Below, piece after piece: positions 1,373 to 64,000 of a stretch of 64,000 nt of DNA. A program made the translations under genes and the position numbers. Origin of the DNA: a virus. The notes under the pieces were generated by a model. The model was not told where the DNA came from, ran no database searches, and worked only from the letters and a program-made list of their open reading frames with translations. The DNA is taken from the IMG/VR virus record IMGVR_UViG_3300036823_000301, positions 1 through 64,000 of that record; one strand, written 5' to 3'. Each line of letters starts with the position of its first letter. Position 1 is the first letter of the stretch.

Positions 1373-1824
1373 TCTCGAAAAAACCTCCGAATTTGCTGTT
1401 TGAGGCCGCGCGTCCCCCCTGTATCGTGCGTTTGGAGTAGACCCATCCGCTCAATAAATCTATGGGGTACGGCTGGATCATAAACGCTGGCTAGGATCGG
1501 TACAGTGTGCCGACGCCGCCATCGCCATAACATACCGACATCGCGCCATGACCAATACTGCATTCCAGTTGGAAACCTGACAATGACCAATTCATCGCCT
1601 GCAACACGATAGGAATCGGCCAATTTAACGTAATCGAAATAATTCACTGTATCCAAACGAACATAGACAACCTGTAGGCCGTGAGCCGTTGCAATAGTCC
1701 TATAATCACTGGTAAGCCAATCCATACTCCTAGGCTGATCCCAAAGCAGATGATCACGGAAGATTCGTAACATCTCCCCCTGATCCAACAGCCGTTTCAG
1801 CTCGGGGTCCATACCAATCTCCAT
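1369..1824 (-). CDS. hypothetical protein
   Basis: 151-aa ORF with ATG start, divergent from the HTH gene. Confidence 0.6.
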   Translation of the reverse strand: MEIGMDPELKRLLDQGEMLRIFRDHLLWDQPRSMDWLTSDYRTIATAHGLQVVYVRLDTVNYFDYVKLADSYRVAGDELVIVRFPTGMQYWSWRDVGMLWRWRRRHTVPILASVYDPAVPHRFIERMGLLQTHDTGGTRGLKQQIRRFFRE

Positions 1825-1919
1825 TTGATCTCATCACCATAAACCCATGGTGGGGAGCATCCGAATTTGCAAAGCCACAATACGGCTCAACGATTTATCG
1901 GTCAACTGTTAATTTTCGT

Positions 1920-1948
1920 TGGACACAAAGATTCGTACCCGCTATATA
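1920..1948 (+). promoter_or_regulatory. putative sigma70-like promoter for a leaderless HTH gene
   Basis: TGGACA-N17-TATATA, with ATG 6 nt downstream at 1955. Confidence 0.45.
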
Positions 1949-1954
1949 GGGCTC

Positions 1955-2185
1955 ATGACGCAGCGCACCGACCCCGAGAGTCTTGCTCATGTTTTGGAAC
2001 GTCTTGAAGAGGCTATACAGATCGCGGGAACGCAGTCGGCATTTGCCGTCAAATATGGGCTCGGGCAAGCCGCTGTATCATTGACTCGACGTGGACTCAT
2101 TAACCCACCACCTAGCCTGTTACATACACTTAACTTAGAGGCAGTGACATATTATGTCAGACTTAACTCTAGATCTCGTCGTTGA
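1955..2185 (+). CDS. Cro/XRE-like helix-turn-helix protein
   Basis: TQSAFAVKYGLGQAAVSLTRRG...PPP HTH pattern; paralog of 4636..4860. Confidence 0.65.
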   Translation: MTQRTDPESLAHVLERLEEAIQIAGTQSAFAVKYGLGQAAVSLTRRGLINPPPSLLHTLNLEAVTYYVRLNSRSRR

Positions 2186-2395
2186 CGAACTTCTCAAACT
2201 TGACCCCCAAATCCGCACAATGATCGCCAAGTCACTTATTGACGACGTCACTTGTCAATACTATCTATGGCTTGCATTAGGCAGCATCGGTAATATGGAG
2301 GTCCACCACAAATCCCCCTGACACCTGTCGAAATTTCTTGACAAATTTGCTTATTTTTCAACAGTCTATCTATCTTTAGACTCAAGGTCAATTAC

Positions 2396-2899
2396 ATGCA
2401 AGATCGGATCGCCATCATCATTGATGGCACGAACATTCACCACGCCAGCCGTGCGCTAGGAATCGACATCGACTACGATAAATTGTTGAAATGGTTCAAC
2501 TCACAAGGCCGTTGCGTACGTGCTCTATACTACAACAGCATCCCGACAGGCGAGGAATACTCCCCTGTCCGTCGGCTGGTTGATTGGGCCTCTCGCAACG
2601 GCTTCGTGGTTGTGTCCCGGCCAGATGATGGGGAAGCGGAAAAGCCTCGTTTCAATGTCGATATGGCCTGCCATATGCTAGAACTAGCAGACAGAATCGA
2701 TCATTTTTACATTTGTGCAGGATCGGCGGAACTCAGACTGCCGGTGGATATCATCCAGCGGAAGGGTGCGAGGGTTACTGTTGTCAGCACCGTTCGCACT
2801 CAACCGCAGCACGTCAGTGACAGTTTGCGGCGTCAGGCCGATGGATTCATCGACCTGAATGACCTCAAAAGCATTGCACGCTCCACAGCCGACAGCTAA
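2396..2899 (+). CDS. NYN domain (LabA/DUF88, PIN-like) protein
   Basis: IIDGTNI, IDYDKLL, RALYY, VDMA, GARVTVVST, SDSLRRQADGFIDL motifs typical of alphaproteobacterial NYN proteins. Confidence 0.9.
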   Translation: MQDRIAIIIDGTNIHHASRALGIDIDYDKLLKWFNSQGRCVRALYYNSIPTGEEYSPVRRLVDWASRNGFVVVSRPDDGEAEKPRFNVDMACHMLELADRIDHFYICAGSAELRLPVDIIQRKGARVTVVSTVRTQPQHVSDSLRRQADGFIDLNDLKSIARSTADS

Positions 2900-3055
2900 T
2901 TTCCAAACGGATCAGGCTGGATAGCGTGGCGGAACGATAACCAGGGCGGTGCGCGGGCACCGCCCTGCCCGACCACAAACGTCCCCTTGGATCGATCCAG
3001 CCCATCCCCAGCATAGGTCGCCTTAGCAGCGGTGCCACAATTGAAAAAGTAGACC

Positions 3056-4639
3056 ATGGAAATATTCAAAACCACACCTTACAAACACCAGCTCGACATT
3101 TACAAACAGAGTAAAGACATGCCTTACGCAGCGTTATTCTTGGAACAACGCTGCGGTAAGACCAAGATCATCTTGGACACAGCCGCTTACCAATACCATG
3201 CCGGCCATATAAACGGGCTGCTCATCATTGCCCCGAATGGCGTTGCCCGGAACTGGTTGGATGAGGTCCAGATCCATCTAACGGAAACTGTTAACCACAA
3301 GATCGTGTTATGGCGATCCGGCAAGATGGCAACCAAGGCCGCTATGGTGGATCTGACGGGTTTACTCCGACACGGCGGCCTGTCGATCTTAAGTATGAAC
3401 ATCGACGCACTCATCACCACGGCCGCCAAAACCTATCTCACCAAATGGTTCCAAGCCCGGCGCACCTTCGTAGCTTTGGACGAGAGCATTGATATTTCCA
3501 GCCCCGGCGCTGCCAGAACAAAGGTGGCGTTACGTGTGGCCCGGCGTTCCATTATCCGTAGAATCGCGGATGGTACGCCGGCGGATGCCAAACCGCTTGG
3601 CCTCTATGCACAGACGCAATTCCTGGAGCCAGGGCTGCTAGGCGCTTCGACTTATGTGGCGTTCAAGGCGCGCTACACCGAGCAAGAAACCCGAGATGTT
3701 GGTGAGCATAACCGAATCTGCGATAATTGTGGCGGAAACGGTTGGTTTGATGGTGGCGTTCGTTGCGAACGATGCCGTGGTAGCTGTTTCATTGGTAACA
3801 AACAGATCGAAACCGTTGTTGGCTACAAGAATCTTGATGAATTAGCACAGAAACTGAAGCCGTTCGCGTTTCGCGTCACCCGCGCGGACTGTGCTGATCT
3901 CCCTCCGAAGGTTTTCGAGCGACGCTATTTCGCGCTCTCACCTGTTCAACAGCGGATTTTCAACGAACTGAAGATGGAGTTTCGTGCAGAGCTCGCCGGA
4001 AAGGTGGTGACCGCAAACATTGTGCTGACGCGCTTGCTGCGGCTCCAGCAGGTTGCCAGCAACCACTTACCGATCGATGGGGATCTGCGAATCTGTGAGG
4101 GGTGTCAGGGGGAGGGGTGCGCGAACTGCGACGATCGCGGCGTGTTGGGGCAAAGTCGCCGCGTGGCTGTGGTCGATCCCGACAAAAACCCTCGCCTGGA
4201 AACGCTTCAGACTGTGCTGGAACCGTTGACGGGACAAGGAATCATATGGACACGGTTTGTTCCAGACGTGGAGGCGGTGATGGGAAGTTTACGGAACGCT
4301 GTGCGCTATGACGGGCAGGTTCCCCCTGACCAACGCATTGAGGCGATCCAGAACTTCCAGGCTGGTAACGCGCAATATTTTGTGGCGAACCCGCGCGCGG
4401 CAGGAAGGGGATTGGATTTATCTGCGGCTAATTTTGTGGTGTACTATGCCCATGACTGGAGCTTGCGGTGGCGTAATCAGAGCGAGGACCGGGCGCAGTC
4501 CCTGAAACGCACCGAATCTGTGCTTTATATCGATCTTGTCGCCGAAGCGACTCCAGATGAAAAGATTATTGCCGCGCTTCGCGATGGAAAAGAGTTGAGT
4601 GAGCAGGTTTTAGGCGACCTGAAACGCGTATTCGATTAA
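3056..4639 (+). CDS. SNF2-family helicase with two CxxCxGxG zinc-finger insertions
   Basis: PYKHQ, EQRCGKT (motif I), ALDES (II), GTP (III), RLLRLQQ, GRGLDL (V), QSEDRA (VI). Confidence 0.9.
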   Translation: MEIFKTTPYKHQLDIYKQSKDMPYAALFLEQRCGKTKIILDTAAYQYHAGHINGLLIIAPNGVARNWLDEVQIHLTETVNHKIVLWRSGKMATKAAMVDLTGLLRHGGLSILSMNIDALITTAAKTYLTKWFQARRTFVALDESIDISSPGAARTKVALRVARRSIIRRIADGTPADAKPLGLYAQTQFLEPGLLGASTYVAFKARYTEQETRDVGEHNRICDNCGGNGWFDGGVRCERCRGSCFIGNKQIETVVGYKNLDELAQKLKPFAFRVTRADCADLPPKVFERRYFALSPVQQRIFNELKMEFRAELAGKVVTANIVLTRLLRLQQVASNHLPIDGDLRICEGCQGEGCANCDDRGVLGQSRRVAVVDPDKNPRLETLQTVLEPLTGQGIIWTRFVPDVEAVMGSLRNAVRYDGQVPPDQRIEAIQNFQAGNAQYFVANPRAAGRGLDLSAANFVVYYAHDWSLRWRNQSEDRAQSLKRTESVLYIDLVAEATPDEKIIAALRDGKELSEQVLGDLKRVFD

Positions 4640-4860
4640 TTTCGTTCCGCGTAATAGATCACCTTACGCTTGTAGCCGATAGCCTTTAGGACAACCGGAG
4701 GTGGATCAATGCGACCCGATACTACCAATGATAGTTGTGATTGATCAATACCATTCTGGCGCGCAAACGCCCCCTGGCTACCGATTCGCTCAATCTCTTT
4801 GGTAAGTTTGGTGTAGACCCTATCGCGGCTAGCGATGTCAATTTCGAGCTTTGCAGCCAT
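4636..4860 (-). CDS. Cro/XRE-like helix-turn-helix protein
   Basis: SQGAFARQNGIDQSQLSLVVSGRIDPPP; start at 4860 preferred (ORF is open to 4923). Confidence 0.7.
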   Translation of the reverse strand: MAAKLEIDIASRDRVYTKLTKEIERIGSQGAFARQNGIDQSQLSLVVSGRIDPPPVVLKAIGYKRKVIYYAERN

Positions 4861-5072
4861 GGATTTTATCCTGTTTTGATTTGACGATATACCCAATATC
4901 TCACATCTGGTTGACATATCCAAGGGTTAATTGAGTCAAGAGGCAATGACGATATCGTTAGGCTTCGTACGGAGTGTGTGCCCAGTTAGTCGCACCTCGA
5001 AATTCTGGATTGACCCATCAATTGGTAATAGCCCATAACCCAACATCATCGATCAATCGTTAAGGGGGTCAA

Positions 5073-5348
5073 TTGATGACACGCAGGCAGCATCTCGAAC
5101 TTTTGGAACTCTATCAGCAGCGCGGTGGATTATTGATGAACCTCCGGGATCTGATGCCTGAAGTAGAGTTTCTGAAATATCTAAGTCGGAATATGACAAG
5201 CCTACAGATGGCACTTGATCTAATTCATTTTCATCTTCATTGGGATATATTTCAACAACAAGAACTTCGAATACATCAGCGCGGATGCCCAACACCTAAC
5301 AACATTTATTGGGCAATTGACGTTGTTAACGCTACACTTGGTATTTAG
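5073..5348 (+). CDS. hypothetical protein
   Basis: 91-aa ORF preceded by an AAGGGGG RBS-like sequence. Confidence 0.5.
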   Translation: MMTRRQHLELLELYQQRGGLLMNLRDLMPEVEFLKYLSRNMTSLQMALDLIHFHLHWDIFQQQELRIHQRGCPTPNNIYWAIDVVNATLGI

Positions 5349-5529
5349 ACCAGAGCCATCAAGAGATTCGGTCGCTTTTACTTTACAGTTGACGACCGAA
5401 CCCGAATCGGTGCACAGTCCTCTCCCGTCGATCAGGGGGGAACCGAGGCCACCACCCACTATTTTCAACACTATTCGCGCTTGACCCGCCGATCAGGGCG
5501 GGTGCAGTAATCCAGACGGAGGGCATCCA

Positions 5530-6123
5530 ATGCATAACGAGAACAACGTTGTCAGCGAATGGGCTGACACGATGGATGACGTCCCGCAAGGTCCGAGCGG
5601 GGAACAGTTGTCTGTCGTGATTGGACTTGCTCAACGACAAACTCAACTTGAAGATTACATTGAACTGCTCGAAAGGGACCTAGATCAATCGAAAGCGGAT
5701 CTCCGCAGAATCCAGGAACGTGAGTTACCGGATGCCATGCAACTGGCCGGTATTGAAAACTATACACTGAATGGTGGACGTAAGGTTGAAATCGTCACAT
5801 CGATCGTAGCCAGTCCGACAAATGACCAAAAGCCGCTGATGTTGGAATGGCTACAAAACAACAACCACGCCGATATCGTCAAGCACGAGCTCAAGATCGG
5901 TTTCGGTAAGGGTGAAGACGACATTGCCAAAAAGTTGAAAAGCTGGCTTGGCATGCACCTACCGAAACAGAAGGTAGACGACAAAACGTTTGTGCATCCG
6001 CAGACATTGAATGGTTTCGTTCGCGAGATGTTTAGAGAAGGTTACGACATTCCTGATACGTTTAACGTAACGTTCCTCCGGAAGAGTGTCGTATCCCGCC
6101 CAAAGGGAGACGGTCCTCTGTAG
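5530..6123 (+). CDS. conserved phage replication-module protein (N-terminal coiled coil)
   Basis: LPDAM, WLQNNNHADIVK, VHPQTLNGFVRE motifs of a protein commonly found upstream of phage SSB/primase genes; GGAGG RBS. Confidence 0.7.
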   Translation: MHNENNVVSEWADTMDDVPQGPSGEQLSVVIGLAQRQTQLEDYIELLERDLDQSKADLRRIQERELPDAMQLAGIENYTLNGGRKVEIVTSIVASPTNDQKPLMLEWLQNNNHADIVKHELKIGFGKGEDDIAKKLKSWLGMHLPKQKVDDKTFVHPQTLNGFVREMFREGYDIPDTFNVTFLRKSVVSRPKGDGPL

Positions 6124-6181
6124 CTGTCCCCCTGCCGCCACCGGCGCGGTTCCTGCCGGCTAACGAGAATGGAGACTATGG

Positions 6182-7030
6182 ATGATTACCAAGACGGTAA
6201 CACGAGAGCACGAACACGAGGCACCTCCAGTCGAGCTGGAACAGGCGCTGGTGACGCAGGACGACGTCTATGAGGGCACAGCTGGCCTGGGTATGGATGG
6301 CGCCACCGCTGACGATTTTGGTCGTCCGCCGCAACTGCGGATCTTGCAGTCTAACAGTCCAGAGGTGAACGAGGCCGAGGGTGCTTATGTGGTTGGTGCC
6401 AAAGCTGGAATGATCATTGATACCGGCACCAAAGAGGTCTTTGACGGCAAGGTTGGAATCACTTTCATACCAGTCAGCCGCGATCACCAATATGTCCAGT
6501 GGCACCAACGGGTTAATGGCGGTGCCGGCGGCGGATTCGTCAAAGTTCTGGCGGTGTCCGATCCCATCATTGCTGAGCTCAAAAAGGCACAAGGCGCTTT
6601 CAACAAGCTGATTTTGCCAGACCAGGACGAGCTGGTGGAGACGTTCCCCCTGTTCGGTCTGGCCATTGCCGCCGGGCTGGCTGATGAGCAATGTTCCCCC
6701 GCGATGATCGCGTTCGCCTCGACGCAGATCAAAAAATACCAGATGCTCATGCAGCGGTTGAACAAGTACATGCGCGATCCGCGAAACCCACCGATGTGGG
6801 CATGGCGGTGGAATTTCGGGACGCAGTCGGAACGTAATAAGAAAGGCTCGTTCTACGGTTGGCGTATCAATCTAGCCAACGGGAATCCAGCAGATTCCAT
6901 GCTGTCTCCGCGTAGCTTCCTCGTCGGCGAGGCCAAGGCATTCTACCAGCAGATCCGGGAAGGCCGTGTCACAGCCGACTATGTCACAGCTGGGCAGCAG
7001 CCCGAAAACGAAGACGACATCCCGTTCTAA
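6182..7030 (+). CDS. putative single-stranded DNA-binding protein
   Basis: Acidic C-terminal tail ENEDDIPF; LRILQSNSPEV and NKKGSFYGW motifs; position before the primase. Confidence 0.65.
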   Translation: MITKTVTREHEHEAPPVELEQALVTQDDVYEGTAGLGMDGATADDFGRPPQLRILQSNSPEVNEAEGAYVVGAKAGMIIDTGTKEVFDGKVGITFIPVSRDHQYVQWHQRVNGGAGGGFVKVLAVSDPIIAELKKAQGAFNKLILPDQDELVETFPLFGLAIAAGLADEQCSPAMIAFASTQIKKYQMLMQRLNKYMRDPRNPPMWAWRWNFGTQSERNKKGSFYGWRINLANGNPADSMLSPRSFLVGEAKAFYQQIREGRVTADYVTAGQQPENEDDIPF

Positions 7031-7081: not shown

Positions 7082-8776
7082 ATGGCTTTGTCAACATTAG
7101 CCGGCGATTTTTGCGAATTATTTGCCGGCTTAGAGCACGCTCATGGGCAATACTTGCTATCAGGCCAAAAATCATCAAAAGGCAAAGCATTAGGCCGCGG
7201 AACGTGGATTAAGACTGGGCCTGCTACTGAGACTGACTGGCAGCGGCATCTTGCCGGCGACATGCATCTCGGTGTCCCACCTCTGCGCCGCGATGGGACC
7301 TGTACCTGGGGTGCGATCGACGTTGATGAATATCCCGTTGACCATAAATCAGTTGCCAAGCGGGTCTCAGATCTCGCGCTTCCTCTGACGCTAATCAGAT
7401 CGAAATCGGGGGGCGGCCATCTTTTCCTGTTTCTGACGCGGCCAGAATCCGCTGCTGCTGTCAGATCAAAGCTCTTTTTGTTCGTCAAAATTCTTGGTTG
7501 GTCTACCAAGACCGAGATTTTCCCGAAGCAGAATGTGCTTACAGAAAATCAGGATGCCTGCGCTGAATGCAGGGGGTCCGGCGGGGTGAATGGTGAACAG
7601 TGTCCGAGCTGCGATGGGTCCGGAAAAGAATCCAGTCTCGGTAGCTGGCTCAACATGCCTTACCAGAACATCGATTATGGGCTGCGTTATGCGTTGGATT
7701 CAGATGGTAATGCGCTTTCAGCGGAAGAATTCATTCAGATAGCCCGTGATCGCGCTATTGATCCCGCACTTCTCGCGGATTTCAGCGAGACCAAGCTCCA
7801 AGCGGACGCCATAGCATCTTCCAATGAAGGGGCCGACGACACCCTCCCATGGGGTCCCCCCTGTCTAAACGCCCTGCTTGTAAATGGTGAAGTTCGGGCT
7901 GGGCTCAGCCGGAGATCTGAAGTTCTTTTCAACCTTGCTATTTATTATAAAAAAGTGTTTCGCGGCAATCGGGATAAGATGATCTCTGCGATCTCTGAGA
8001 TTAATTCGAAATATTTCAATCCTCCAGTTCATTTAAGCGATGTACGTGCGCGTGTTGGAAGCGCCCTCAATAAGAATTATCAATATCGTTGCAATGAATC
8101 TCCGCTCGTAGAGCATTGCGACAACGCCGCCTGCAAACTGAGAAAATTTGGAATTGTAGATCCACTCAGGGTGCGCGGAGTAAACGGAGCGTCTACGCCT
8201 GGACTCAGTGGTGGTGACTTTGGACAGCTTGTTCGCTACGGCACGGATGACGCCACTTTCGAATGGACCATAAGGGGTAAAAAATTAAAATTTAAGGCTA
8301 AGCATATACTTAACCAACGAGAATTTCGTGTCAAGCTGATGAACGATACTGGCTGGGATGTAGGGATCACTAATCCATCAAGTTGGGCCATTATAGTTAA
8401 CAATGCCATGGCCACGTTGATAAATGTTGAAGTTACTTCAGCATTGTTGGAAAAGGGTCAATTCTATAGACACATCGTGAAATTTTGTAGTGGTCGTGTC
8501 ATCGCTAAAGATCTTGAAGAAATTACATCTGGAAAGCCTTTCGTGAAGAATGGTAATTACTATTTTGTGGTGGAAGATTTCATGGAGTATTTGCGTGAAA
8601 AAGGCCAGCCAACAAGATTGGATGACATTTTCATGAAATTCAACGAGATAGGCGTGTTGAGCAAAAGAGAAATATTTAACGGATTAACGTGCGAATACTT
8701 CGTTGTGCCTGGGGCGGAAGCCCTGCAAACTGAAGATTTCAATGTGCCTCGCGACAACCAGGAATCACGATTTTGA
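7082..8776 (+). CDS. archaeo-eukaryotic primase (AEP) family primase/primase-polymerase with PriCT-like domain
   Basis: WGAIDVD (DxD), RSKSGGGHLFLF (SxH), EIFPKQ, WLNMPY, GPPCL; CxxCxGxG insertion. Confidence 0.8.
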   Translation: MALSTLAGDFCELFAGLEHAHGQYLLSGQKSSKGKALGRGTWIKTGPATETDWQRHLAGDMHLGVPPLRRDGTCTWGAIDVDEYPVDHKSVAKRVSDLALPLTLIRSKSGGGHLFLFLTRPESAAAVRSKLFLFVKILGWSTKTEIFPKQNVLTENQDACAECRGSGGVNGEQCPSCDGSGKESSLGSWLNMPYQNIDYGLRYALDSDGNALSAEEFIQIARDRAIDPALLADFSETKLQADAIASSNEGADDTLPWGPPCLNALLVNGEVRAGLSRRSEVLFNLAIYYKKVFRGNRDKMISAISEINSKYFNPPVHLSDVRARVGSALNKNYQYRCNESPLVEHCDNAACKLRKFGIVDPLRVRGVNGASTPGLSGGDFGQLVRYGTDDATFEWTIRGKKLKFKAKHILNQREFRVKLMNDTGWDVGITNPSSWAIIVNNAMATLINVEVTSALLEKGQFYRHIVKFCSGRVIAKDLEEITSGKPFVKNGNYYFVVEDFMEYLREKGQPTRLDDIFMKFNEIGVLSKREIFNGLTCEYFVVPGAEALQTEDFNVPRDNQESRF

Positions 8777-10152
8777 CCCAAACATTGCTGCTAGGGCCAC
8801 CAGGGACCGGTAAGACCCACCGATTGCTTAATGAGATGGAAAAGGTGTTAGCTAGAGGGGTCAAACCCGAGCACATTGCGTTCTGTTCATTTACCCGAGC
8901 AGCAGTCACTGAAGCCACGGAACGTGCCTGCATCAAGTTTGGTCTTGACCCTCAACAGTTACCGTATTTCCGAACACTACATTCTCTTGCTTTTCGTGAA
9001 CTTGCACTGCGTCGTGTGGACGTGCTCGATCGTGAAGATCTTCATAGATTTGGCGAAGTTGTTGGGGAAAATCTAACAGGCCATCATGATTTGGATTCGC
9101 CTACGTTGGGTGAGGATGGTGATGGTTTTCTATTTTTAGATCAATACGCACGCGCCACTGGTATGGATGTCAAAAGTGCGTGGCACGAAACCGGCCTCGA
9201 AGTTAACTATCATCGTGCCAAGAGATTCGCTGACGCCTACACACTGTTCCGTGACGACATTGGCAAGGTCGATTTTACCGACATGCTCGAACAATATGCT
9301 GCGAGAGGCATCGCACCGAATGTCTCCGTCGCGATCATCGATGAAGCCCAAGATCTAACCCCTCTCGCATGGCAGGTCGTGGATCGTGCATTCGGACAGA
9401 TTGACGATCTCTGGGTGGCTGGTGACGATGACCAGACTCTCTATGGATGGTGCGGTGCAAAATCGGACCGTCTATTCGATTGGGGCGGCCAACGCGAAGT
9501 TCTAAGCCAATCTTATCGCCTTCCTAAAACAATTTTCAATGTTGCTTCAGATGTTGTCGCAAACATAGAAAAGCGGAATCCTAAAACTTGGCATCCACGC
9601 GATGCTGTTGGAGAAGTTGAATATTTGGGAGATATTAATCAGTTAGATCTATCTTCTGGTCGCTGGCTGATGTTAGCTAGGACTCGTTACCAATTGAAAC
9701 AACTGGTGAATATTGCGCGGGCGCAGGGGGTAGCGTATTCGCGGATGGGGCAGCCGGCAATTGACGGTGGTGTCATCCGCGATATCCAGGAATACGAACG
9801 CGATCGTAAGGCTGATCCGACGATGCCTGTCTGGTATGAAGCTATGCATGAAATTCCCGCTGAGGACCGCAGTTATATTCGCGGGTTGCGGCGTCGTGGC
9901 GAAGACGTTTTCAGTATGCGTAAGAAAGGAGATGATCGACACATCGAGCCACGTGTTCGCATCAGCACCATCCACGGAGCTAAGGGGTTAGAGGCCGATA
10001 ATGTATTTCTCTTACCAGAATTGACCAAGCGGGTACGTAAAGGGATGGAATTAAATCCTGATGCCGAACGTAGAGTTCAGTATGTGGCTGTAACGCGTGC
10101 CCGTGAACGTCTTGTCATCTTGAATCCTACGCGTCGTGGCTATCAATTTTAG
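8773..10152 (+). CDS. UvrD/Rep-family SF1A helicase
   Basis: GPPGTGKT, SFTRAA, TLHS, IIDEAQD, AGDDDQ, QSYR, STIHGAKGLE, YVAVTRAR. Confidence 0.92.
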   Translation: MTQTLLLGPPGTGKTHRLLNEMEKVLARGVKPEHIAFCSFTRAAVTEATERACIKFGLDPQQLPYFRTLHSLAFRELALRRVDVLDREDLHRFGEVVGENLTGHHDLDSPTLGEDGDGFLFLDQYARATGMDVKSAWHETGLEVNYHRAKRFADAYTLFRDDIGKVDFTDMLEQYAARGIAPNVSVAIIDEAQDLTPLAWQVVDRAFGQIDDLWVAGDDDQTLYGWCGAKSDRLFDWGGQREVLSQSYRLPKTIFNVASDVVANIEKRNPKTWHPRDAVGEVEYLGDINQLDLSSGRWLMLARTRYQLKQLVNIARAQGVAYSRMGQPAIDGGVIRDIQEYERDRKADPTMPVWYEAMHEIPAEDRSYIRGLRRRGEDVFSMRKKGDDRHIEPRVRISTIHGAKGLEADNVFLLPELTKRVRKGMELNPDAERRVQYVAVTRARERLVILNPTRRGYQF

Positions 10153-15552: not shown

Positions 15553-15553
15553 A
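15525..15553 (+). promoter_or_regulatory. putative promoter of the Y RNA-Ro60 locus
   Basis: TTTACA-N17-TATGAA; predicted +1 falls at ~15558-15560, the 5' end of the first Y RNA. Confidence 0.55.
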
Positions 15554-15557
15554 GTCT

Positions 15558-15691: not shown

Positions 15692-15706
15692 TGAAGTTTG
15701 TTTGTT

Positions 15707-15773: not shown

Positions 15774-15780
15774 CTAAATC

Positions 15781-23141: not shown

Positions 23142-24155
23142 ATGGCGTTCCGAGTCCCGAACCTTGCCCCAGCTTACTTGACCGATTCGGGGGCAGCATA
23201 TTGCGGCGACTCGATTGAACTTCTGGCGCAGCTTCCCGACAACAGCATCAATCTCGTTTTCACGTCGCCGCCCTTCGCGTTGCAGCGGCAGAAGGCATAC
23301 GGGAACAAGGACCAGATGGAGTATGTTGACTGGCTGGCGGCCTTCGCCCGCGAAGTCCATCGCGTCTTGAAAGATGACGGTAGTTTCGTGTTGGACCTCG
23401 GCGGATCATACGAGAAAGGAACCCCGGCACGGAGCCTGTATAATTTCAGGGTTCTTATAAAATTCTGTGATGACCTGGGCTTTTTTCTGGCCGAGGATTT
23501 CTACTGGTTCAATCCATCGAAGCTTCCCAGCCCCATCGAATGGGTCAACAAGCGCAAACTGCGGGCGAAGGATGCCGTGAACACCGTATGGTGGTTCAGC
23601 AAAACCGCGTGGCCGAAGGCCGATATCACGAAGGTTCTGGCCCCCTACAGCGACCGCATGAAGAAATTGCTGATCGATCCTGACGCTTTTTACACACCAA
23701 AATTGCGGCCATCAGGCCACGACATTGGCAGGGGCTTCGCTAAAGACAATGGCGGAGCCATCCCGTCGAACCTGCTGCGGATACCCAATACTGAGTCGAA
23801 CGGCCTGTATCTCGACGGATGCAAGGCCGTCGGGGAGAAGCAGCACCCGGCCCGCTTCCCGGCAAAGCTGCCGGAATTCTTTATCCGCATGCTGACCGAA
23901 CCGGGTGACGTCGTTCTGGACATCTTTGCCGGATCGAACACTACCGGTCAGGTTGCAGAAGCGGAAAACCGACAATGGCTAGCGTTCGAACTGTCCCGCG
24001 ACTACGTGGCGACGTCCGCCTTCCGGTTCCTCGGAGGCAACGACGCGCACGACGAGATGCACCAGTTGTACGACCGCATCGAAAAAGGTGAATCCGTCGA
24101 TCTAAACAGCTACATCTCTCAGGGCGGCTTTATGCCAACTGCCGCAGATGAATGA
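23142..24155 (+). CDS. N4-cytosine DNA methyltransferase (beta class), M.PvuII-like, orphan
   Basis: TSPPF motif IV before DIFAGSNTT motif I; stretches GFFLAEDFYWFNPSKLPSPIEWVNKRK and HPARFPAKLPEFFIRMLTEP match M.PvuII as I recall it. Confidence 0.9.
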   Translation: MAFRVPNLAPAYLTDSGAAYCGDSIELLAQLPDNSINLVFTSPPFALQRQKAYGNKDQMEYVDWLAAFAREVHRVLKDDGSFVLDLGGSYEKGTPARSLYNFRVLIKFCDDLGFFLAEDFYWFNPSKLPSPIEWVNKRKLRAKDAVNTVWWFSKTAWPKADITKVLAPYSDRMKKLLIDPDAFYTPKLRPSGHDIGRGFAKDNGGAIPSNLLRIPNTESNGLYLDGCKAVGEKQHPARFPAKLPEFFIRMLTEPGDVVLDIFAGSNTTGQVAEAENRQWLAFELSRDYVATSAFRFLGGNDAHDEMHQLYDRIEKGESVDLNSYISQGGFMPTAADE

Positions 24156-26785: not shown

Positions 26786-28228
26786 ATGATCTCTTTGACC
26801 TATCCGGCGTCTGCCAACGGCACTACGGCTGGTCCGTCAGGCATAGCGATCAATGATACAAACAGCACAAGTTGGGTAATCACTGGCCCCAGCAACGAGA
26901 TTGAGCGGCTCTCGCCTACTACTGGTGGCGTCCTCGACGCGTCCACATCGAATGTGGACGCCCTTACCTTAGTGAATGGGGTGATCTGGCAGCAAGCACA
27001 CCCTAGCTGGGCACCGACGACGGCCTATTGGTTCAAGTGGACTGGAAGCGGTTGGAGCGCCGGCCAGACCGCTTCCCCGTTAGCTGGCGTGCCAAGCACC
27101 GACGGCAGCTACATTGGCACGCCGCCTGCTGGCACGCTCGGCACCAACGTCACGGACCAGCTCCTGGTCGATAATCAGGGGAATGTCTGGGGGTTGGTGA
27201 ATGGGCAAGTAACCGAAAACGGTGTGATTGATAAGACCACCGACGGCGTCCAGGCACTAGAAATTCACAATGGCGTTCTCTGGCAGGAAGCAGTCCCAAG
27301 CTGGGGTAATGGCAACGACTACTTCTTCCAGTGGACGGGGAAGACCTGGGGGACGGGCACCCTCGTGTCCCCCCTGCCCGAGCCGGAAGTTTGGGTGGGC
27401 GGCGGCAACAACAACGCATCCAATCCAACTGACTGGTTACAGGGACACGTCCCGCAAGCAAGTGAAGGTCTCGCGGATATTCTCAGCGGCACCATCAATG
27501 TGCACGGCAACGATATGGTCAACGACACCTTGCATATTGCGGGTCCCGAAGATTTTATTGGCCCGACGTCAGCCACGACCATCAATCTCTTCGCGCAGCC
27601 CGCGTTCAATATGACCGTTGGTCAGGGGGCATCTGCGATTACAATCAATATTGAGAATCAGTCGCGGTGGACAGGGGGTATCAACACGAATCCATTCGCG
27701 ACCGACAGCGTCGTGAATGGTCCAGGCGTCTGGCAGAACACAAATTCATCCATCGAGCGTGGGCTCGCGGTCAACGCGCCAGTCGCCAGTGTCGGTGGGA
27801 TCTTCGACTTGGCTGGTAATCATGGTGGGACGCCAACCTTGGAATTCATGCAGAGTGTTGTTGGCCAGACGGTCTACGTGGAAGGTGGTTCCTACGCCAA
27901 CGTCCCCAGCGCGCTGAAAATTGACGACCCCAAGGATTTCCAATCGTCAATCCAGCTGGGATTTGGCTCCATCGATCTGAAAGGCATTCTGGCTTCGATG
28001 TACCAGTTCGATGGTAAGACCTTGACCCTCTATAATGCAGCCAATCAGAAGGTAGAGACGCTGAATCTAGCACTGGACACCAATCCGACGGCTCATAGCG
28101 GCGGTTTTGGAGCCACCCATCTGGGGGTATTCCAAGTTGGCTCGGACGTGGTTATCGCTGGCAATAGCCAGAACTACAATTCCTACACACCGGCAGCGGG
28201 ATCGATCGCTCTGCCAATACATGCCTGA
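26786..28228 (+). CDS. beta-rich adhesin/lectin-like protein with two Trp-rich repeats
   Basis: Repeat GV.D.TT..V.AL...NGV.WQ.A.PSW....YWF.WTG..W x2; C-terminal LKIDDP..F...I.....IDLKG. Confidence 0.65.
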   Translation: MISLTYPASANGTTAGPSGIAINDTNSTSWVITGPSNEIERLSPTTGGVLDASTSNVDALTLVNGVIWQQAHPSWAPTTAYWFKWTGSGWSAGQTASPLAGVPSTDGSYIGTPPAGTLGTNVTDQLLVDNQGNVWGLVNGQVTENGVIDKTTDGVQALEIHNGVLWQEAVPSWGNGNDYFFQWTGKTWGTGTLVSPLPEPEVWVGGGNNNASNPTDWLQGHVPQASEGLADILSGTINVHGNDMVNDTLHIAGPEDFIGPTSATTINLFAQPAFNMTVGQGASAITINIENQSRWTGGINTNPFATDSVVNGPGVWQNTNSSIERGLAVNAPVASVGGIFDLAGNHGGTPTLEFMQSVVGQTVYVEGGSYANVPSALKIDDPKDFQSSIQLGFGSIDLKGILASMYQFDGKTLTLYNAANQKVETLNLALDTNPTAHSGGFGATHLGVFQVGSDVVIAGNSQNYNSYTPAAGSIALPIHA

Positions 28229-28322
28229 AAATGTTTCGTAAGTGACGTTTTTGCCTTAGCAGCGACTACACGTGTTAGGTATATTTAATCCTGTCACGTA
28301 AACAGCGCAGAAATGGTCTTCT

Positions 28323-28688
28323 ATGGTTAAGGTCCTAATCGTAGAAGACCTACACATCAGTAGGAAATTGGTTATCCGCATGCTTTATGGCAGCGGCTAT
28401 GATGTCACAGAAGCCGATAGTGGGGTTCAGGCCCTGTTGCTGTATGAGCAGGGTCACCGCTTTGATGTCGTGATCACGGATATTGCGATGCCAGGTGGAA
28501 TTGATGGCATCGATCTAGCAGAGGCTGTACGTCAGATCGACAGTAAGGCACGAATCATATTTATATCGGGATATGCAGGCGTAGATTGGACGATTTTAGA
28601 AGAGCTTAATGCAAGTTTTATTGGTAAACCATTTCGACGTAAGGAATTACTGGATCATTTACGTCTAAAATTGCAAGGATCACAATGA
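28323..28688 (+). CDS. single-domain response regulator (CheY-like receiver)
   Basis: VLIVED, VVITDIAMPG..DG (phospho-Asp), IIFISGY, KPF. Confidence 0.92.
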   Translation: MVKVLIVEDLHISRKLVIRMLYGSGYDVTEADSGVQALLLYEQGHRFDVVITDIAMPGGIDGIDLAEAVRQIDSKARIIFISGYAGVDWTILEELNASFIGKPFRRKELLDHLRLKLQGSQ

Positions 28689-28882
28689 TAGAATTTTCTC
28701 AAGAACACTCCGATGCTATCGAAGCGATGAAAAATCAATTGCTCATCGTGCTCATAAAACGTTTAGGAGGAAAAATCAAAATACCAGTGGCAGAAATTGA
28801 TGGGACTGGACAGGATCTATTGTTAATGCGGCTAGACCAAGAGCAGCATCGATTCGAATTCGTCGTGAAAAAGAAGAATTGA
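28685..28882 (+). CDS. hypothetical protein
   Basis: ATGA-coupled ORF. Confidence 0.55.
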   Translation: MIEFSQEHSDAIEAMKNQLLIVLIKRLGGKIKIPVAEIDGTGQDLLLMRLDQEQHRFEFVVKKKN

Positions 28883-29049
28883 TGCGGCTTATAACTATCT
28901 TTGATTACCTATCACTTCCAGGACTGCTTGAATTTTTTCAGGATGCTCTTGTATTTATAAGCGCATGGCTCTGTCGAAAAGCGCACGTGCGTCGCATGAT
29001 AAAGAATCTCGTGGCGCTGCGTGATGACCTAACGAACCTCAAATCGTGA
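28882..29049 (+). CDS. hypothetical 55-aa protein (not in ORF track)
   Basis: TGATG overlap with the upstream gene; MRLITIFDYLSLPGLLEFF... Confidence 0.4.
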   Translation: MRLITIFDYLSLPGLLEFFQDALVFISAWLCRKAHVRRMIKNLVALRDDLTNLKS

Positions 29050-29144
29050 GATCGCACATGGAACCGCAAATGTATGAGAGTCCGCTAACAGCGATCAATA
29101 CTAGACTCACTGAGATAAACGATCGGTTAGATGCGCACGACGCG

Positions 29145-29570
29145 CTACTTAACCGATTGCGCGATAACTTTAACGATCTCATTTCCGTAATGAGAGACGA
29201 TAGCCGACACGACAGCGGAGGCTGCACATAAGATGCCAGCGGCAACCTTCCAACTACCTTTCCAGGTTTGGATCGTGACCTCATGACTGTCTACACGTTT
29301 CTGCAATTCTTCAAGATCACCGTCGATGTGTCCAATTTGTTCTTGAAGTTTGCTGAAACGTTCGTGCAATGTTTTGCGAAATTCAATAAAAGTTGCATTT
29401 AATTCAGTGCTAGAGGCCAAGCCGCGATCACTGCGTTCGAGGATTTTTTGTAGGTCGGAAGCAGTTTGCAAATTGGTCGCGGCCTGTTGCTGTGAAAAGG
29501 CTCGCAATTCACCGATCACGGTCGATATTTCGCTGAGATCTGAATTGCGAAACATGGAGCCTATTGTCAA
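29145..29570 (-). CDS. coiled-coil protein with a C-terminal TM helix (lysis-region, holin/XhlA-like)
   Basis: Heptads followed by the hydrophobic segment WKVAAGILCAASAVVSAIV. Confidence 0.6.
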   Translation of the reverse strand: MTIGSMFRNSDLSEISTVIGELRAFSQQQAATNLQTASDLQKILERSDRGLASSTELNATFIEFRKTLHERFSKLQEQIGHIDGDLEELQKRVDSHEVTIQTWKGSWKVAAGILCAASAVVSAIVSHYGNEIVKVIAQSVK

Positions 29571-29600
29571 TCTAAGTTACCTAGTCCCCATGACACAATT

Positions 29601-29765
29601 TTAATAGAATCGGTGCCCCAGTAAGGCTAAAATTAAAAAGATGACAACTACGGTTATGATGATACCACCAAAGGGTGCTCCACCATAGTAGCCGGCATTG
29701 TAGCCATAGAATCCGCCGCCGCAGAGCACGAAAATAAGAACGATTATGAGGATGAGGCTAAGCAT
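29601..29765 (-). CDS. DUF3309-like 54-aa two-TM membrane protein (not in ORF track)
   Basis: MLSLILIIVLIFVLCGGGFYGYNAGYYGGAPFGGIIITVVVIFLILALLGHRFY*. Confidence 0.7.
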   Translation of the reverse strand: MLSLILIIVLIFVLCGGGFYGYNAGYYGGAPFGGIIITVVVIFLILALLGHRFY

Positions 29766-30540
29766 GCCGGTGTCCTGTCATTTTCATAGATGACATAAGA
29801 GATTCAAGATCTGCGACGCTCATGCCAAGTGGTGTTTTACCGGTAGTATTGACCCAGTTTGGGTCCACCAGACCGTAAGCTTCTTCCGTTTGTTTTTGGA
29901 AGAATTCCCACGTCATCTGATACTTCTGGCCCCAGCTGATCAGATTGACATACTGAGCATCATAACCGGCAAGGATGACAGCATGACCACCGAGACTGGT
30001 CGCCTTCGGATCATACTGCCATATGGCAGGGGGGTCGGCATTATCTGGCATCACATTACTTGCCACATCGAAGCCGATGTAACAAACTCCGCATGAATTG
30101 ATAGTGCGCTTGATGTCATCCGCGTTACGTACGTCTACTTCGATCCAGGCGGCCAGCTTGTCCGGGCCGTATACCCCTGGCACCCCCTGAATCATCCAAT
30201 CCGTGAGCACAGTCTGCTCATCGCCCCCCTGATCTGTGTTCGGGTCCTTGGGGTCGTAAGCACAAAATGATTCATAGATCTGAAGGACATCGGCATCAGG
30301 GTTAGTCAATATTTGCCCGCTGGCACCAAAAGACCACACTTGAATAGCGTGGTAAACTGCGGAGCACGTGCAACAACCCAGGGAATCATTCAACATTACG
30401 CCGAGGGCGGCCGGCATTTTGGCTAAATAGTTGACCGAGACAGGGGGAGGCGGTAGTTGTTGCCCCCCGATGAGCGCACTCATGTGCGGAATTCGTGGGT
30501 CAAATCGCCGTGGCTTACGCCCGGTCTTAAATTTCGGCAT
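29758..30540 (-). CDS. papain-like (C1-type) cysteine peptidase
   Basis: ND.LGCCT (Cys), GGHAVILAGYD (His), ISWG. Confidence 0.8.
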   Translation of the reverse strand: MPKFKTGRKPRRFDPRIPHMSALIGGQQLPPPPVSVNYLAKMPAALGVMLNDSLGCCTCSAVYHAIQVWSFGASGQILTNPDADVLQIYESFCAYDPKDPNTDQGGDEQTVLTDWMIQGVPGVYGPDKLAAWIEVDVRNADDIKRTINSCGVCYIGFDVASNVMPDNADPPAIWQYDPKATSLGGHAVILAGYDAQYVNLISWGQKYQMTWEFFQKQTEEAYGLVDPNWVNTTGKTPLGMSVADLESLMSSMKMTGHRHA

Positions 30541-61218: not shown

Positions 61219-61226
61219 ATAAGCCC

Positions 61227-62279
61227 TTAAGGTGGAATGCCAGAAGCAACATCTTTGACACTATTCGGCAGTTGCGCGCTCTTGTCGATCGAGAGGCAGA
61301 TCATATCCGAATACCAATTTGTCCCTCGATTGTCACCTATATGATCAACCCAAAGAACTTTGTAGTAACCCTTGCGGCCGGACGCCCACATGTCGTTCGT
61401 CGGTGGTAGTATGTTAAGATTCGTGACTTCCAGACCGATGGGTGGCTGCTGAATATACGACGTATCCAATTGAATTTGCGCGCCGGGACCAATCGCTGGA
61501 TTTAGTAAACAGCGGACATTGATTCCGTCCGCTGTCAATCTCGGTAGTCCGATCAGACCAGTGCTCGGAGTCAACACGACCGCATCACCCGGCTTATAAG
61601 CCGTACGCGGTAGAAAATTCAGCGTGTTGTTGTCTAATGACCACGTATTGTTATGAGAGTCAGCTAAATCGTTAAGGATCGCCTTAGCTGGCCCATAAAG
61701 TGCGCGTCCCCGAGCCGCAGAATCAGGGGGTTTCACGGGGCAAGCCTTCGTGTCGTCGGTCCACGTCACCTTGGTGCCGTTGACAGTACCAAACTTTGAC
61801 ATTTGCTGTGCGACAATGTCTTGAATGTCGGCTTGACTATGACCCGCAGCAAGCGAGACATTGACGAGTCCCCAATTCCGCGCTGTATCAGAGTCCGCTG
61901 CGAGAATTTCGACAAAGGTATCGACCACATTTTGCTCGCGCCCAGACCGCACCTGACGGATGGAGCCGGTAAAAATAGTTCCGTAGTTTCCGGTATAGCC
62001 AGCCTTGATGATAACTTGCCCCTGCCATTGACCAAAGCCAGTCGATCCTGTTGACCCCTGCGCACCTGCAATGTTAGCAATGAACTGCGCTGTTTGCGTC
62101 GAGACATTCCAGATTTTAATACGTGCTGTGTGTGGTGTGCTAATGACAATATGACGCACATCGAACTCAATATGAAGTGCATTGAGTGTGGGCGCGACCA
62201 ATTCGATACCTTCCCCGCCAGCGGCAGGTGCCACGATGACAGATAGATATCGCCCAAAGAGCTGAGTGCTGCTGCTCAT
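61227..62279 (-). CDS. baseplate hub protein
   Basis: ARIKIWNV, IKAGY..NYG.IF.G, TGLIG.P, V.CLLNP, GDNRG..WYS. Confidence 0.85.
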   Translation of the reverse strand: MSSSTQLFGRYLSVIVAPAAGGEGIELVAPTLNALHIEFDVRHIVISTPHTARIKIWNVSTQTAQFIANIAGAQGSTGSTGFGQWQGQVIIKAGYTGNYGTIFTGSIRQVRSGREQNVVDTFVEILAADSDTARNWGLVNVSLAAGHSQADIQDIVAQQMSKFGTVNGTKVTWTDDTKACPVKPPDSAARGRALYGPAKAILNDLADSHNNTWSLDNNTLNFLPRTAYKPGDAVVLTPSTGLIGLPRLTADGINVRCLLNPAIGPGAQIQLDTSYIQQPPIGLEVTNLNILPPTNDMWASGRKGYYKVLWVDHIGDNRGTNWYSDMICLSIDKSAQLPNSVKDVASGIPP

Positions 62280-62581
62280 GCGAAAAAATAAAGTTGTGTA
62301 TTAACACCGAGATCCGTGTAACCAACAGTCAAAATGTCACCCGATAATTGTACACCTAGACCGCCTCCGATTCCGATATAGTCGTATTGAGTAAGTAGAT
62401 TGATTCCACTTTTAAGTGGTATACCACAAATCAGTGGACTTCCATTGACATCCCCGATATCAAGAATCCACCCAGCATTCACATCATCACAATAGATCAA
62501 ACGCATCGTGTAGATGACACCGAGCAGCGTGACGCTGAAATTCTGCTGTGCGTTGATGAGGGGTATTTGATAAAAGTTCAA
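62276..62581 (-). CDS. baseplate plug-like protein
   Basis: IPL...Q.F...L, W.LDI....G.PL..GIPL..G.NLL.QY. Confidence 0.8.
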   Translation of the reverse strand: MNFYQIPLINAQQNFSVTLLGVIYTMRLIYCDDVNAGWILDIGDVNGSPLICGIPLKSGINLLTQYDYIGIGGGLGVQLSGDILTVGYTDLGVNTQLYFFA

Positions 62582-63165
62582 TGGGTCCCCCCGAAAATGT
62601 TCGCCAATATGCTACCGTTCGATGAGCTCGGTGGAACAGTGGCTGGTGTTTGTGGACCAGTATTCACTGTCCCCCCTGTCTGTTGCGGCTCAGCCTGATC
62701 CGATAACGGAGGTGCCTGGACCGCTTGGGTCGATACGATAATGATTTGTTGACATACCGCTTGGCACATCAGAGCTTTTTCAGTATCTTTATCGGTTGTT
62801 ACCATGAGCGACGTCAACATCATGCTGGAATAGGCTTGTTTACCTGTGTAAAGTGTGAATGGTGTCCCTGATGTTTGTAGGACAAGCAAATAGTTGTAAA
62901 CTTCTTCAACGAAACCGTCGCCATTCCCGGCGTCCGTCCAAGCCCAACGAAGCGTCACTTCCGTTGGCATCTTAAAGTAATGGTCAGAGATATTGGCACC
63001 GACCTCAACCGGGTGCTGCGTTATCACCAAGCGATCGAGGTGACGCTCTTCTATAGCGCAGTTCGGCACCAGCGAACCGATCGATCGCGGTGTGCTGATC
63101 AGAAGCGTTTCAAGAAAACTGGCTGCACCAGCCGCCGCAGCGAAGGCAGTTATTGCCCCAGACAT
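62578..63165 (-). CDS. baseplate/tail-tube initiator (Dit-like) protein
   Basis: IEE.H.D.L.IT.HPVE.GA.ISDH, PF...TGK..Y..M. Confidence 0.8.
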   Translation of the reverse strand: MSGAITAFAAAAGAASFLETLLISTPRSIGSLVPNCAIEERHLDRLVITQHPVEVGANISDHYFKMPTEVTLRWAWTDAGNGDGFVEEVYNYLLVLQTSGTPFTLYTGKQAYSSMMLTSLMVTTDKDTEKALMCQAVCQQIIIVSTQAVQAPPLSDQAEPQQTGGTVNTGPQTPATVPPSSSNGSILANIFGGTH

Positions 63166-64000
63166 TATCGATTCGGTGACTGAGAGTTACGGATCATATC
63201 CATAGTAGACTGTTCAGCGGTCGCTTGAATACGATCTGCGACGGACTGTGGGTCCTGGACCCCATGCACGTTGAGCGTCGTATCTACCTTATAGCTATGG
63301 TGTTGGACAGGGGGAGCAGTGGTGGAAGTCTGGCCGCCCTGTGCGACAGGGCCAAGTGCCGGACCATCCTTTAAGAACGCCTGCCCATAAGCTGTATGAC
63401 CAGCTTCATATTGCTGCAAATTACCAGCATGCCCGGCTTCATAATCTTCGAAAAAGTCATGAGCAAGGCTCGAAAAATTCCGCATCGGTTGACGCATTTT
63501 TTCCAATAGTTGTGGGAACTTATTCTTCAACTCCCATTCATGGTATTGGATATCGACCTCTTCTGGTGACAGATCCGGATGCGCACGTGCGAAGGCATCA
63601 CGCGCTGTTCGCCGAGGGCCGGTGAACTGCCACATACCGAAAGCTGATGTCGTTGTTTGTGGCACAAGGCCAGTCGGAATACTGCGAATGCCAGATTCGG
63701 CCGCTGCATTACCGGCATCAGCCGCCGCAGCTTGCGACGTAATGCCGAGATCTTTCTGCAAGCGCGCCATGAGCATGCGCGCGCGGCTTCGAATCTCAGC
63801 GCTGGTTGTGGCAGGGGGGGTTGGTCCCAAAGCATCCCCTGGGAGGCCGCCTCCACCGCCCCCACCCCATTCAGCAGCGTTGGCTGGCGACACTAGCACA
63901 GCGTTGTTGACAATAACTCTGTCGAATAAGCCGAATAGTTTGGAGGCAAAGTCAGCACTTTTATCAACACCTTCCTTCAGCCACGTGCCTGCGGTCGAAC
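63165..64000 (-). CDS. tape measure protein C-terminus with phage-tail-lysozyme domain (5' end outside window)
   Basis: Frame stays open to the window edge; AA...GN...ESG and AFGMWQFTGPRR motifs. Confidence 0.75.
   Translation of the reverse strand, partial: STAGTWLKEGVDKSADFASKLFGLFDRVIVNNAVLVSPANAAEWGGGGGGGLPGDALGPTPPATTSAEIRSRARMLMARLQKDLGITSQAAAADAGNAAAESGIRSIPTGLVPQTTTSAFGMWQFTGPRRTARDAFARAHPDLSPEEVDIQYHEWELKNKFPQLLEKMRQPMRNFSSLAHDFFEDYEAGHAGNLQQYEAGHTAYGQAFLKDGPALGPVAQGGQTSTTAPPVQHHSYKVDTTLNVHGVQDPQSVADRIQATAEQSTMDMIRNSQSPNR

Follow-up and report, generated by a model that had tools for sequence, protein, structure and literature searches.

We describe a short DNA word that is repeated throughout an uncultivated phage genome and is shared with a deep lineage of its relatives. 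The window, by which we mean the whole 64,000-nucleotide stretch that was analysed, is the first 64 kb of the 74,423-bp IMG/VR record IMGVR_UViG_3300036823_000301, assembled from a soil metagenome. The word is the asymmetric heptamer CCCCCTG (CAGGGGG on the complementary strand), which contains the hexamer CCCCTG. Its distribution in the window, and two copies whose positions are of particular interest, are as follows.

1415..63818, both strands: the field of word copies (81 CCCCCTG, 141 CCCCTG), with one hexamer per ~450 bp
27678..30027, no strand assigned: the longest hexamer-free stretch (2,355 bp), covering small genes with a G+C of 0.39-0.46 at the switch of transcription direction
9724..9730, minus strand: a positionally conserved copy, CAG GGG G, over a conserved Gln-Gly-Val of a helicase gene
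7857..7863, plus strand: a copy over Pro-Pro-Cys of a primase gene (amino acids 259-261), in which P259, P260 and C261 are invariant

The heptamer lies 51 times on the plus strand and 30 times on the minus strand, where 100 dinucleotide-preserving shuffles of the window gave 7.02 ± 2.68 copies and never more than 14. A preliminary description of this DNA, made from the letters alone, had counted about 80 (51 and 29) and had stated that most runs of five or more C are followed by TG; 81 of the 125 such runs in the window are. The hexamer is divided 87 to 54 between plus and minus. Over the whole record the heptamer count is 56/33, against 10/6 for the reversed control GTCCCCC, and CCCCTG is present in 164 copies (103/61), where ~40 are expected from composition and 31.5 from a first-order Markov model. 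In a maximum-order Markov analysis of the whole record the signal sits in CCCCT/CCCCTG: hexamer frequencies already account for the number of heptamers, and the fifth C is present in 54% of CCCCTG copies. A weak extended consensus, yyCCCCCTGtc, has flanks worth 0.1-0.3 bit per position. The total of CCCC runs is about as expected, the runs being concentrated in the context of the word, and the 18 words that differ from it by one letter are depleted by approximately the number of copies that the word has gained, most strongly the C-to-T variants at heptamer positions 2-4.

The overall excess on the plus strand (103:61, or 63:37) is significant (binomial p = 0.0013). It was earlier put at ~21:13 and ~30:16 for the heptamer in the two transcription blocks; we recount 21:14 and 30:16, with 31:24 and 56:30 for the hexamer, and the excess persists in both blocks after allowing for the easier coding of CAGGGG. 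The apparent absence of the word from two methyltransferase genes, to which the preliminary description had drawn attention, is within chance, as 60..1013 and 23142..24155 hold 0 and 1 hexamers where ~2.1 and 2.2 are expected.

Codon usage had been judged an unlikely cause of the enrichment, and we reject it: the excess survives synonymous shuffling with z scores of 14-25, and spacers are as dense in the word as genes are. When synonymous codons were shuffled in 75 genes, the sense strand held 60 CCCCTG versus 9.4 ± 2.7 in the shuffles (z 19) and 88 CAGGGG versus 22.7 ± 4.5 (z 14.5). A scan of all heptamers under the same null returned CAGGGGG and its overlapping derivatives as the only outliers (z 25), the next unrelated word having a z of ~6. 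The word occupies 23% of the places where it is synonymously accessible, and Gln-Gly is written CAG GGG in 37% of cases versus ~10% predicted from codon usage. The excess is present on both strands and in all frames, which agrees with the earlier remark that copies lie in different frames. Flank preferences are the same for sense, antisense and non-coding copies and are therefore a property of the DNA rather than of coding; explanations at the level of RNA were also discarded. A homopolymer artefact of sequencing or assembly, which had been raised as a possible undoing of the observation, was likewise rejected, because an independent assembly of the source run (Logan) and short contigs of three further soil studies show 0 differences from the sequence over several copies of the word. 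The identical phage is contained in four soil runs; the small share of words in runs X3 and X4 is not taken as evidence of habitat. The codon shuffle, the same-peptide codon control and conservation across the clade described below give good support to the selected cis-signal that had been proposed. The enrichment itself, with selection at silent sites, is firmly established, and CCCCCTG is best explained as a cis-acting DNA word.

Under the codon-shuffle null, nine further uncultivated phages, 46-76 kb in size, have CAGGGGG at rank 1-3 of 8,192 heptamers. The counts of CAGGGGG in these relatives are as follows.

G406: 53 observed, 13.8 expected
G407: 42 observed, 12.9 expected
G410: 50 observed, 14.9 expected
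G460: 53 observed, 15.8 expected
G461: 39 observed, 13.7 expected
G463: 54 observed, 18.8 expected
G464: 20 observed, 5.2 expected
G465: 58 observed, 19.4 expected
G466: 26 observed, 9.8 expected

These nine genomes have a G+C of 0.54-0.66, and their family A DNA polymerase (PolA) is 45-53% identical to that of the window phage. Among loci of at least 12 kb that share the primase (n = 56), CAGGGGG was the top heptamer in two; whole-record counts of primase-sharing phages gave three enriched genomes, and these three have the closest PolA (49-53% identity, 587-666 bits, versus at most 412 bits for the other loci compared). A scan by PolA alignment added seven more clade members. The whole clade, including the group of G407, has related baseplate genes and forms one deep lineage. 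The notion that the word spans different virion modules was accordingly dropped, the G407 group having the same baseplate families, and with a single deep lineage mosaicism cannot pin the word to one module.

Outside this lineage we did not find the word enriched. Tail-sheath relatives at up to 65% identity from IMG/VR, JGI metagenomes, GTDB genomes and GenBank phages, including prophages from many Proteobacteria, are not enriched; the two closest sheath relatives, P0002 (75%) and P0003 (65%), lie outside the contigs counted. Pseudanabaena phage Pan1, the best named PolA relative (42% identity), is not enriched either. Against GenBank phages, a megablast search with 12 kb had no match, and neither the primase nor a baseplate protein found a counterpart when scanned singly against IMG/VR. 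The 401 evenly drawn Pseudomonadota genomes have no comparable specific excess: the densest carry one copy per 1.5 kb at a G+C of 0.57-0.61 and are plain G+C-rich genomes with a ~2-fold excess and other words on top. One of the 401 (G388) is unpublished, and no result rests on it. The word is specific to one deep lineage of uncultivated myovirus-like phages. Two incidental observations were made in these surveys. The Pseudomonadota genome G055 holds CAGTTGG/CCAACTG 174 times in 60 kb, versus 7.8 by composition, a bacterial word unrelated to CCCCCTG. G464 (2745-3599 of its piece) and Pan1 encode QueC of the 7-deazaguanine pathway, and no such gene was seen in this window.

Particular copies are conserved in position. 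The Gln-Gly-Val column of the helicase alignment is written CAG GGG G in 8/9 word-bearing phages versus 0/8 word-free relatives with Gln-Gly, and a conserved Leu-Pro-Leu-Ser is written CTC CCC CTG TCC in six word-bearing phages. Since the helicases are only ~40% identical across these genomes, the word has been maintained or regained at silent positions over long times. The primase copy at 7857..7863 has a heptamer at the same alignment column in G463 and G466.

The copies are also arranged relative to one another. In seven relatives (G407, G410, G460, G461, G463, G465 and G466) successive sites alternate in orientation beyond chance (runs test p <= 0.0015). Sites in the order CCCCCTG ... CAGGGGG stand close together (median 223 bp, 5th-95th percentiles 24-1,563 bp), and those in the opposite order have a median distance of 2.2 kb; the resulting convergent pairs recur every 2-3.5 kb in these seven genomes. 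They lie mostly inside one gene and are kept at orthologous places between G461 and G466. Spacing per strand is regular in most relatives, with a coefficient of variation (CV) of 0.27-0.57, against ~0.95 for a Poisson null. Facing pairs at regular intervals imply that some machine reads the phage DNA itself. The window phage differs from its relatives in having 2-4 times more sites, a relaxed core (CCCCTG) and the plus-strand excess. Its sites pooled over both strands are placed nearly at random (CV 0.95), and its heptamers taken per strand are slightly more even than random (CV 0.73-0.76, where the 5% bound of the null is 0.74-0.79).

Related phages use dialects of the word. The outlier heptamer of MW202510.1 is GTCCCTG (20 observed versus 2.9 expected). 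G409, whose primase belongs to the same clade, uses CCCCAGG/CCTGGGG (52 versus 22.9 expected) with the same alternation of orientation (p 0.003), and G462, a truncated contig without CCCCCTG enrichment, has its own word GCCCAGG/CCTGGGC (47 versus 12.7 expected). A marine group of low G+C has TCCAGGA/TCCTGGA as its outlier. Every dialect found (GTCCCTG, CCTGGGG, CCTGGGC and TCCTGGA) contains 5'-CCTG-3'. The top heptamer includes CCTG/CAGG in 10/56 loci of the primase clade versus 2/52 control loci, with 3.1% expected by chance; several of the ten are close kin, and they represent about six lineages.

The following genes of the window phage bear on what reads the word, an archaeo-eukaryotic primase (AEP) among them.

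7082..8776, plus strand: AEP primase of 564 amino acids (Pfam AEP-TOTE, E 2e-10), the candidate reader
8773..10152, plus strand: UvrD-like SF1 helicase (Pfam UvrD-helicase/UvrD_C), overlapping the end of the primase gene
3056..7030, plus strand: the remainder of the replication-initiation module, conserved, with alternative candidate readers
3056-4639, plus strand: SNF2 helicase, a member of the module
5530-6123, plus strand: DUF7307, a member of the module
6182-7030, plus strand: Pam3 gp34-like protein, a member of the module, annotated as ATP-binding in phage DSL-LC04
21115..23073, plus strand: PolA, whose clade (45-53% identity) marks the word-bearing phages

SNF2-DUF7307-gp34-primase-helicase forms a conserved module, and the gene order is the same in phage DSL-LC04. 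Homologues of the primase carry PF22548 and PriCT_1, and the cysteines C261, C337, C346 and C351 of its cluster are invariant in an alignment of 18 sequences. PolA and the UvrD-like helicase are universal in the clade, with a helicase orthologue in all complete word-bearing genomes, and every word-bearing genome that reaches far enough encodes the AEP primase. The primase gene lies 12-18 kb upstream of PolA in complete relatives, and the contigs of G462 and G464 extend less than 9 kb in that direction. We therefore abandoned the propositions that the word tracks PolA but not the primase and that it persists without a primase in G464, as these two contigs stop short of the primase position. No gene family was found that is present only in word-bearing genomes. 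All nine word-bearing primases of a tree of these proteins belong to a single supported clade of 19 members, six of them in a group with 99% support, two in another group and that of the window phage on a long branch; the word label requires 3 changes on this tree versus 8.7 for shuffled labels (0/500 shuffles were as low). The window phage also encodes at least three DNA methyltransferase-like genes and both UvrD-like and RecD/Dda-like helicases. No recombinase and no integrase were found among its scanned proteins.

Our best explanation, which we put forward tentatively and at somewhat less than even chances, is that CCCCCTG marks, on the template, where the phage's own zinc-finger AEP primase starts. 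The strongest argument for it is chemical: the word contains the start core of this enzyme class, and the dialects keep CCTG. Read 3' to 5', CCCCCTG is 3'-GTCCCCC-5' and includes 3'-GTCC-5', the preferred start of human PrimPol and of herpes primase, both of which are AEPs (PMC5934617; PMC8187027). In these enzymes an uncopied, cryptic G is sensed via the zinc-finger domain and the first dinucleotide is pppAG (PMC5934617; PMC8187027); E. coli DnaG starts at d(CTG) (PMC2978363). By analogy, the 3'-terminal G of the word would be the uncopied cryptic base, and synthesis would begin with pppA opposite the T and continue along the C tract; the resulting primer, pppAGGGGG, would be G-rich and pair tightly. 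A site of 6-7 bases arises by chance only every 4-16 kb per strand, and selection would therefore have planted the word on both strands. The planted spacing would then be the spacing of Okazaki fragments, every 2.5-3.7 kb per strand in the relatives and 0.7-1.3 kb in the window phage, where the heptamer would have relaxed to CCCCTG. The primase as reader, the sequence of the primer and the role of the pairs are inferred.

Several observations weigh against this explanation. Priming of a lagging strand treats the two strands independently and does not predict convergent pairs. In the window phage itself the alternation of orientation is weak (p 0.01) and short-range pairing is absent, and its strand bias of 63:37 is a further difficulty. 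The ten other members of the 19-member primase clade belong to word-free phages, and the word is not enriched in 51 other records of the wider primase clade, whose primases are 29-33% identical to that of the window; identity to the window primase alone does not predict the word. Co-inheritance, moreover, cannot separate the primase from the helicase, SNF2, PolA or another factor conserved in the lineage, and the reader may be encoded by the host. A primase site was one of four candidates listed in the preliminary description, beside a Chi-like signal, a methylase target and a packaging or organisation site, and of these it has gathered the most support, from the AEP core in the word and its dialects and from the zinc-finger AEP primase that the phage encodes; its weak side is the many phages with related primases that lack the word. 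On the co-occurrence with this primase clade that had been suggested as a check, the nine word-bearing primases lie together in one supported clade, and the ten clade members and the 51 records just mentioned lack the word.

The pairs could be accommodated if the primase acted together with a helicase. Priming on 5'-CCCCCTG-3' would proceed toward the C tract, and the members of a pair would thus prime diverging syntheses; a UvrD-type helicase with 3'-to-5' polarity, travelling outward on each strand, would run into precisely these sites, which may provide the starts for two replisomes. In this form of the proposal, which we consider improbable, the pairs would be about 20 dispersed bidirectional start units per genome, with primase-helicase complexes parting from a loading zone and each priming the leading strand at the first outward 3'-GTCCCCC-5', and the window phage would use the looser code CCCCTG at 2-4 times as many sites. 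An AT-rich stretch, as expected of an unwinding element, was looked for inside the pairs and none was found, which counts against the priming explanation. Were dispersed origins confirmed, these phages would replicate from many evenly spaced, sequence-defined origins, as archaea and eukaryotes do.

Two other readings deserve to be weighed seriously, though each is on balance unlikely. One is a Chi-like signal: a helicase-nuclease, either a host enzyme of RecBCD/AddAB type or a UvrD/RecD-like enzyme of the phage, would enter at ends or breaks, read 5'-CAGGGGG-3' and switch from degradation to recombination or repair, so that both orientations at short intervals would protect and recombine phage DNA. 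The word is G-rich and asymmetric like Chi, its alternating orientation would cover breaks from either side, the genome of the window phage has an orientation bias of 63:37 and encodes helicases of UvrD-like and RecD/Dda-like type, and enrichment of Chi is documented in the phage LLS, in other lambdoid phages without recombination modules and in P1 (PMC12315714). The Chi sites of LLS, however, are clustered at the genome ends and not evenly spaced (PMC12315714). Chi is set by a host enzyme and is enriched and skewed in the host genome, whereas the phage word is the same in phages with a G+C of 0.51-0.66 and probably of different hosts, and the 401 Pseudomonadota genomes show no specific excess of it. 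Chi logic also treats the orientations independently, while seven relatives couple plus and minus sites in a fixed order (p <= 0.0015; 220 bp versus 2.2 kb); it predicts neither this order, nor a pair spacing of ~220 bp, nor the penalty on surplus sites implied by a CV of ~0.3. An equally unlikely reading makes the word the landing or loading site of another DNA-tracking or DNA-organising protein of the phage, such as the translocase SNF2, the gp34-like protein or a small protein so far unrecognised. One functional unit would then consist of two inverted sites, by looping or by colliding or diverging motors, in the service of genome organisation, of discrimination between self and host, or of the control of replication or transcription. 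Oriented pairs of variable spacing (20-700 bp) that recur every 2-3.5 kb do suggest an interaction between two sites, and both the dialects of related phages and the conservation of the SNF2-DUF7307-gp34-primase-helicase module fit such a protein, but no candidate is confined to word-bearing genomes, the window phage has no pairing, and the AEP core CCTG in all dialects is left unexplained.

The least supported rivals are a methylase target and a host-derived or mutational origin. That the word is a host "self word" copied into the phage by an uptake-sequence-like drive, or the product of a repair bias that converts near-cognate words, seems to us quite improbable. Oligonucleotide usage in phages often mirrors that of the host, and the one-off neighbours of CCCCCTG are depleted, the C-to-T variants at positions 2-4 most of all; against this, the sampled Pseudomonadota reach at most a ~2-fold excess with other words on top, the sheath relatives show no enrichment, prophages from many Proteobacteria among them, and drive alone would not produce regular spacing, oriented pairs and conserved positions. 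The phage moreover has its own replication machinery, and no integrase was seen among the proteins scanned. Least probable of all, to the point that we would be surprised to see it borne out, is a DNA methyltransferase target, for instance of a type IIG-like m6A enzyme (60-1013) acting on the A of CAGGGG, with the word driven by a process linked to methylation. The abundance of the highly iterated palindrome HIP1 in cyanobacteria has been linked to methyltransferases, the phage has at least three genes of its own that resemble DNA methyltransferases, and one strand of the word contains just one A, a feature of type IIG/IIL sites. This candidate of the preliminary description nevertheless fares poorly, as no methyltransferase of the window has an orthologue across the word-bearing clade: 60-1013 has no match there and 23142-24155 one partial match (G407). 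The gene at 60-1013 resembles only the C-terminal half of the Eco57I model, and in phages methylation sites are as a rule neutral or avoided rather than enriched and placed at regular intervals.

Known sequence signals resemble the word in part. The sites of human PrimPol, herpes simplex UL52 (3'-GTCC-5' or 3'-G-pyr-pyr-5'), E. coli DnaG (d(CTG)), T7 gp4 (5'-(G/T)2GTC-3'), pRN1 ORF904 and the NrS-1 prim-pol are, like the phage word, short asymmetric templates with an uncopied 3' base followed by pyrimidines, and 5'-CCTG-3' is precisely how the phage word ends; the cryptic base is usually read by a zinc-binding element of the primase (PMC5934617, PMC8187027, PMC2978363, PMC12839067, PMC8718748, PMC2965215). 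In Chi-rich phages (LLS, other lambdoids without Rec modules and P1) an asymmetric G-rich word that acts in cis on DNA metabolism is likewise enriched by selection, but the LLS sites cluster at the genome ends, unlike the evenly spaced and paired word of this clade (PMC12315714). Known primase sites have 3-5 bases and are frequent by chance, whereas the phage word has 6-7, is 4-10 times over-represented, is conserved across its clade, is evenly spaced and is paired in the relatives.

We know of no report of a genome enriched in primase sites. The DNA uptake sequence (DUS) of Neisseriaceae, the uptake signal sequence (USS) of Pasteurellaceae and HIP1 of cyanobacteria share with the phage word their hyper-abundance at ~1/kb, their presence in genes in all frames and their lineage dialects. 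They belong, however, to cellular genomes; DUS and USS are 9-12 bp long, HIP1 is a palindrome, and none has oriented pairing or regular spacing. The phage word has 6-7 fixed bases with weak flanks, no enriched host was found among the sampled genomes and the prophage relatives are not enriched, and it is asymmetric, so that it is not a palindrome of the HIP1 type; GCGATCGC has only 4 copies. Type III and Type ISP restriction enzymes use an asymmetric word of 5-7 bp whose function is set by the relative orientation of two copies at variable distance. Phages avoid such pairs or bias them to one orientation, whereas the pairs of this clade are created and conserved, and no such nuclease-methylase is conserved in the clade.

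A full-text literature search for the two words returned only unrelated human and animal papers, and further literature searches brought up no case of primase sites that are enriched or evenly spaced in a phage genome. Chi, uptake sequences and primase sites are already known as selected words, and none combines clade-wide constancy, even spacing and oriented pairs. Our searches turned up no account of a phage lineage in which a single heptamer stays unchanged while proteins diverge by ~50% and G+C varies over 15 points, the copies standing at even intervals and in oriented pairs. If the primase is indeed the reader, this would be the first case in which a primase's extended site preference visibly shapes a whole genome, down to codon choice, and the sequence by itself could reveal the spacing of Okazaki fragments or origins. 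With any other reader, the pairs point to a DNA-tracking system that has yet to be described. Either way, such words may serve as markers for grouping uncultivated phages.

A number of further observations were made on the record. It is linear and without end repeats, and it is probably incomplete despite a CheckV estimate of 100%. No terminase, portal or major capsid protein was found among the scanned proteins of the whole record, and word-bearing relatives of 68-76 kb have head genes. At its gene-free right end, beyond the window (record 74310-74370), lie two direct repeats of CGCCCCCTGATTACCnGTG, 36 bp apart, both of which include the word; the two could act as an origin-like element or in regulation. 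The Eco57I-like methylase at 60-1013 (plus strand) matches only positions 78-171 of the 171 in the Pfam model, and a stop precedes its ATG; the gene may have lost its N-terminal part, or the contig end may cut through it.

Other genes and RNAs of the window were noted in passing. The stretch 15525-15924, upstream of a Ro60 gene, holds no known RNA family at Rfam gathering thresholds. The Ro60 orthologue itself (15924-17561, plus strand) is intact, with TROVE and vWA domains, and is encoded in a phage. An RNase-like protein with an NYN domain (2396-2899, plus strand) lies just upstream of the SNF2 helicase gene. A group I intron (52828-53044, minus strand) matches the full Rfam model RF00028 with 54.7 bits and is situated in the gap between two genes of the tail region.

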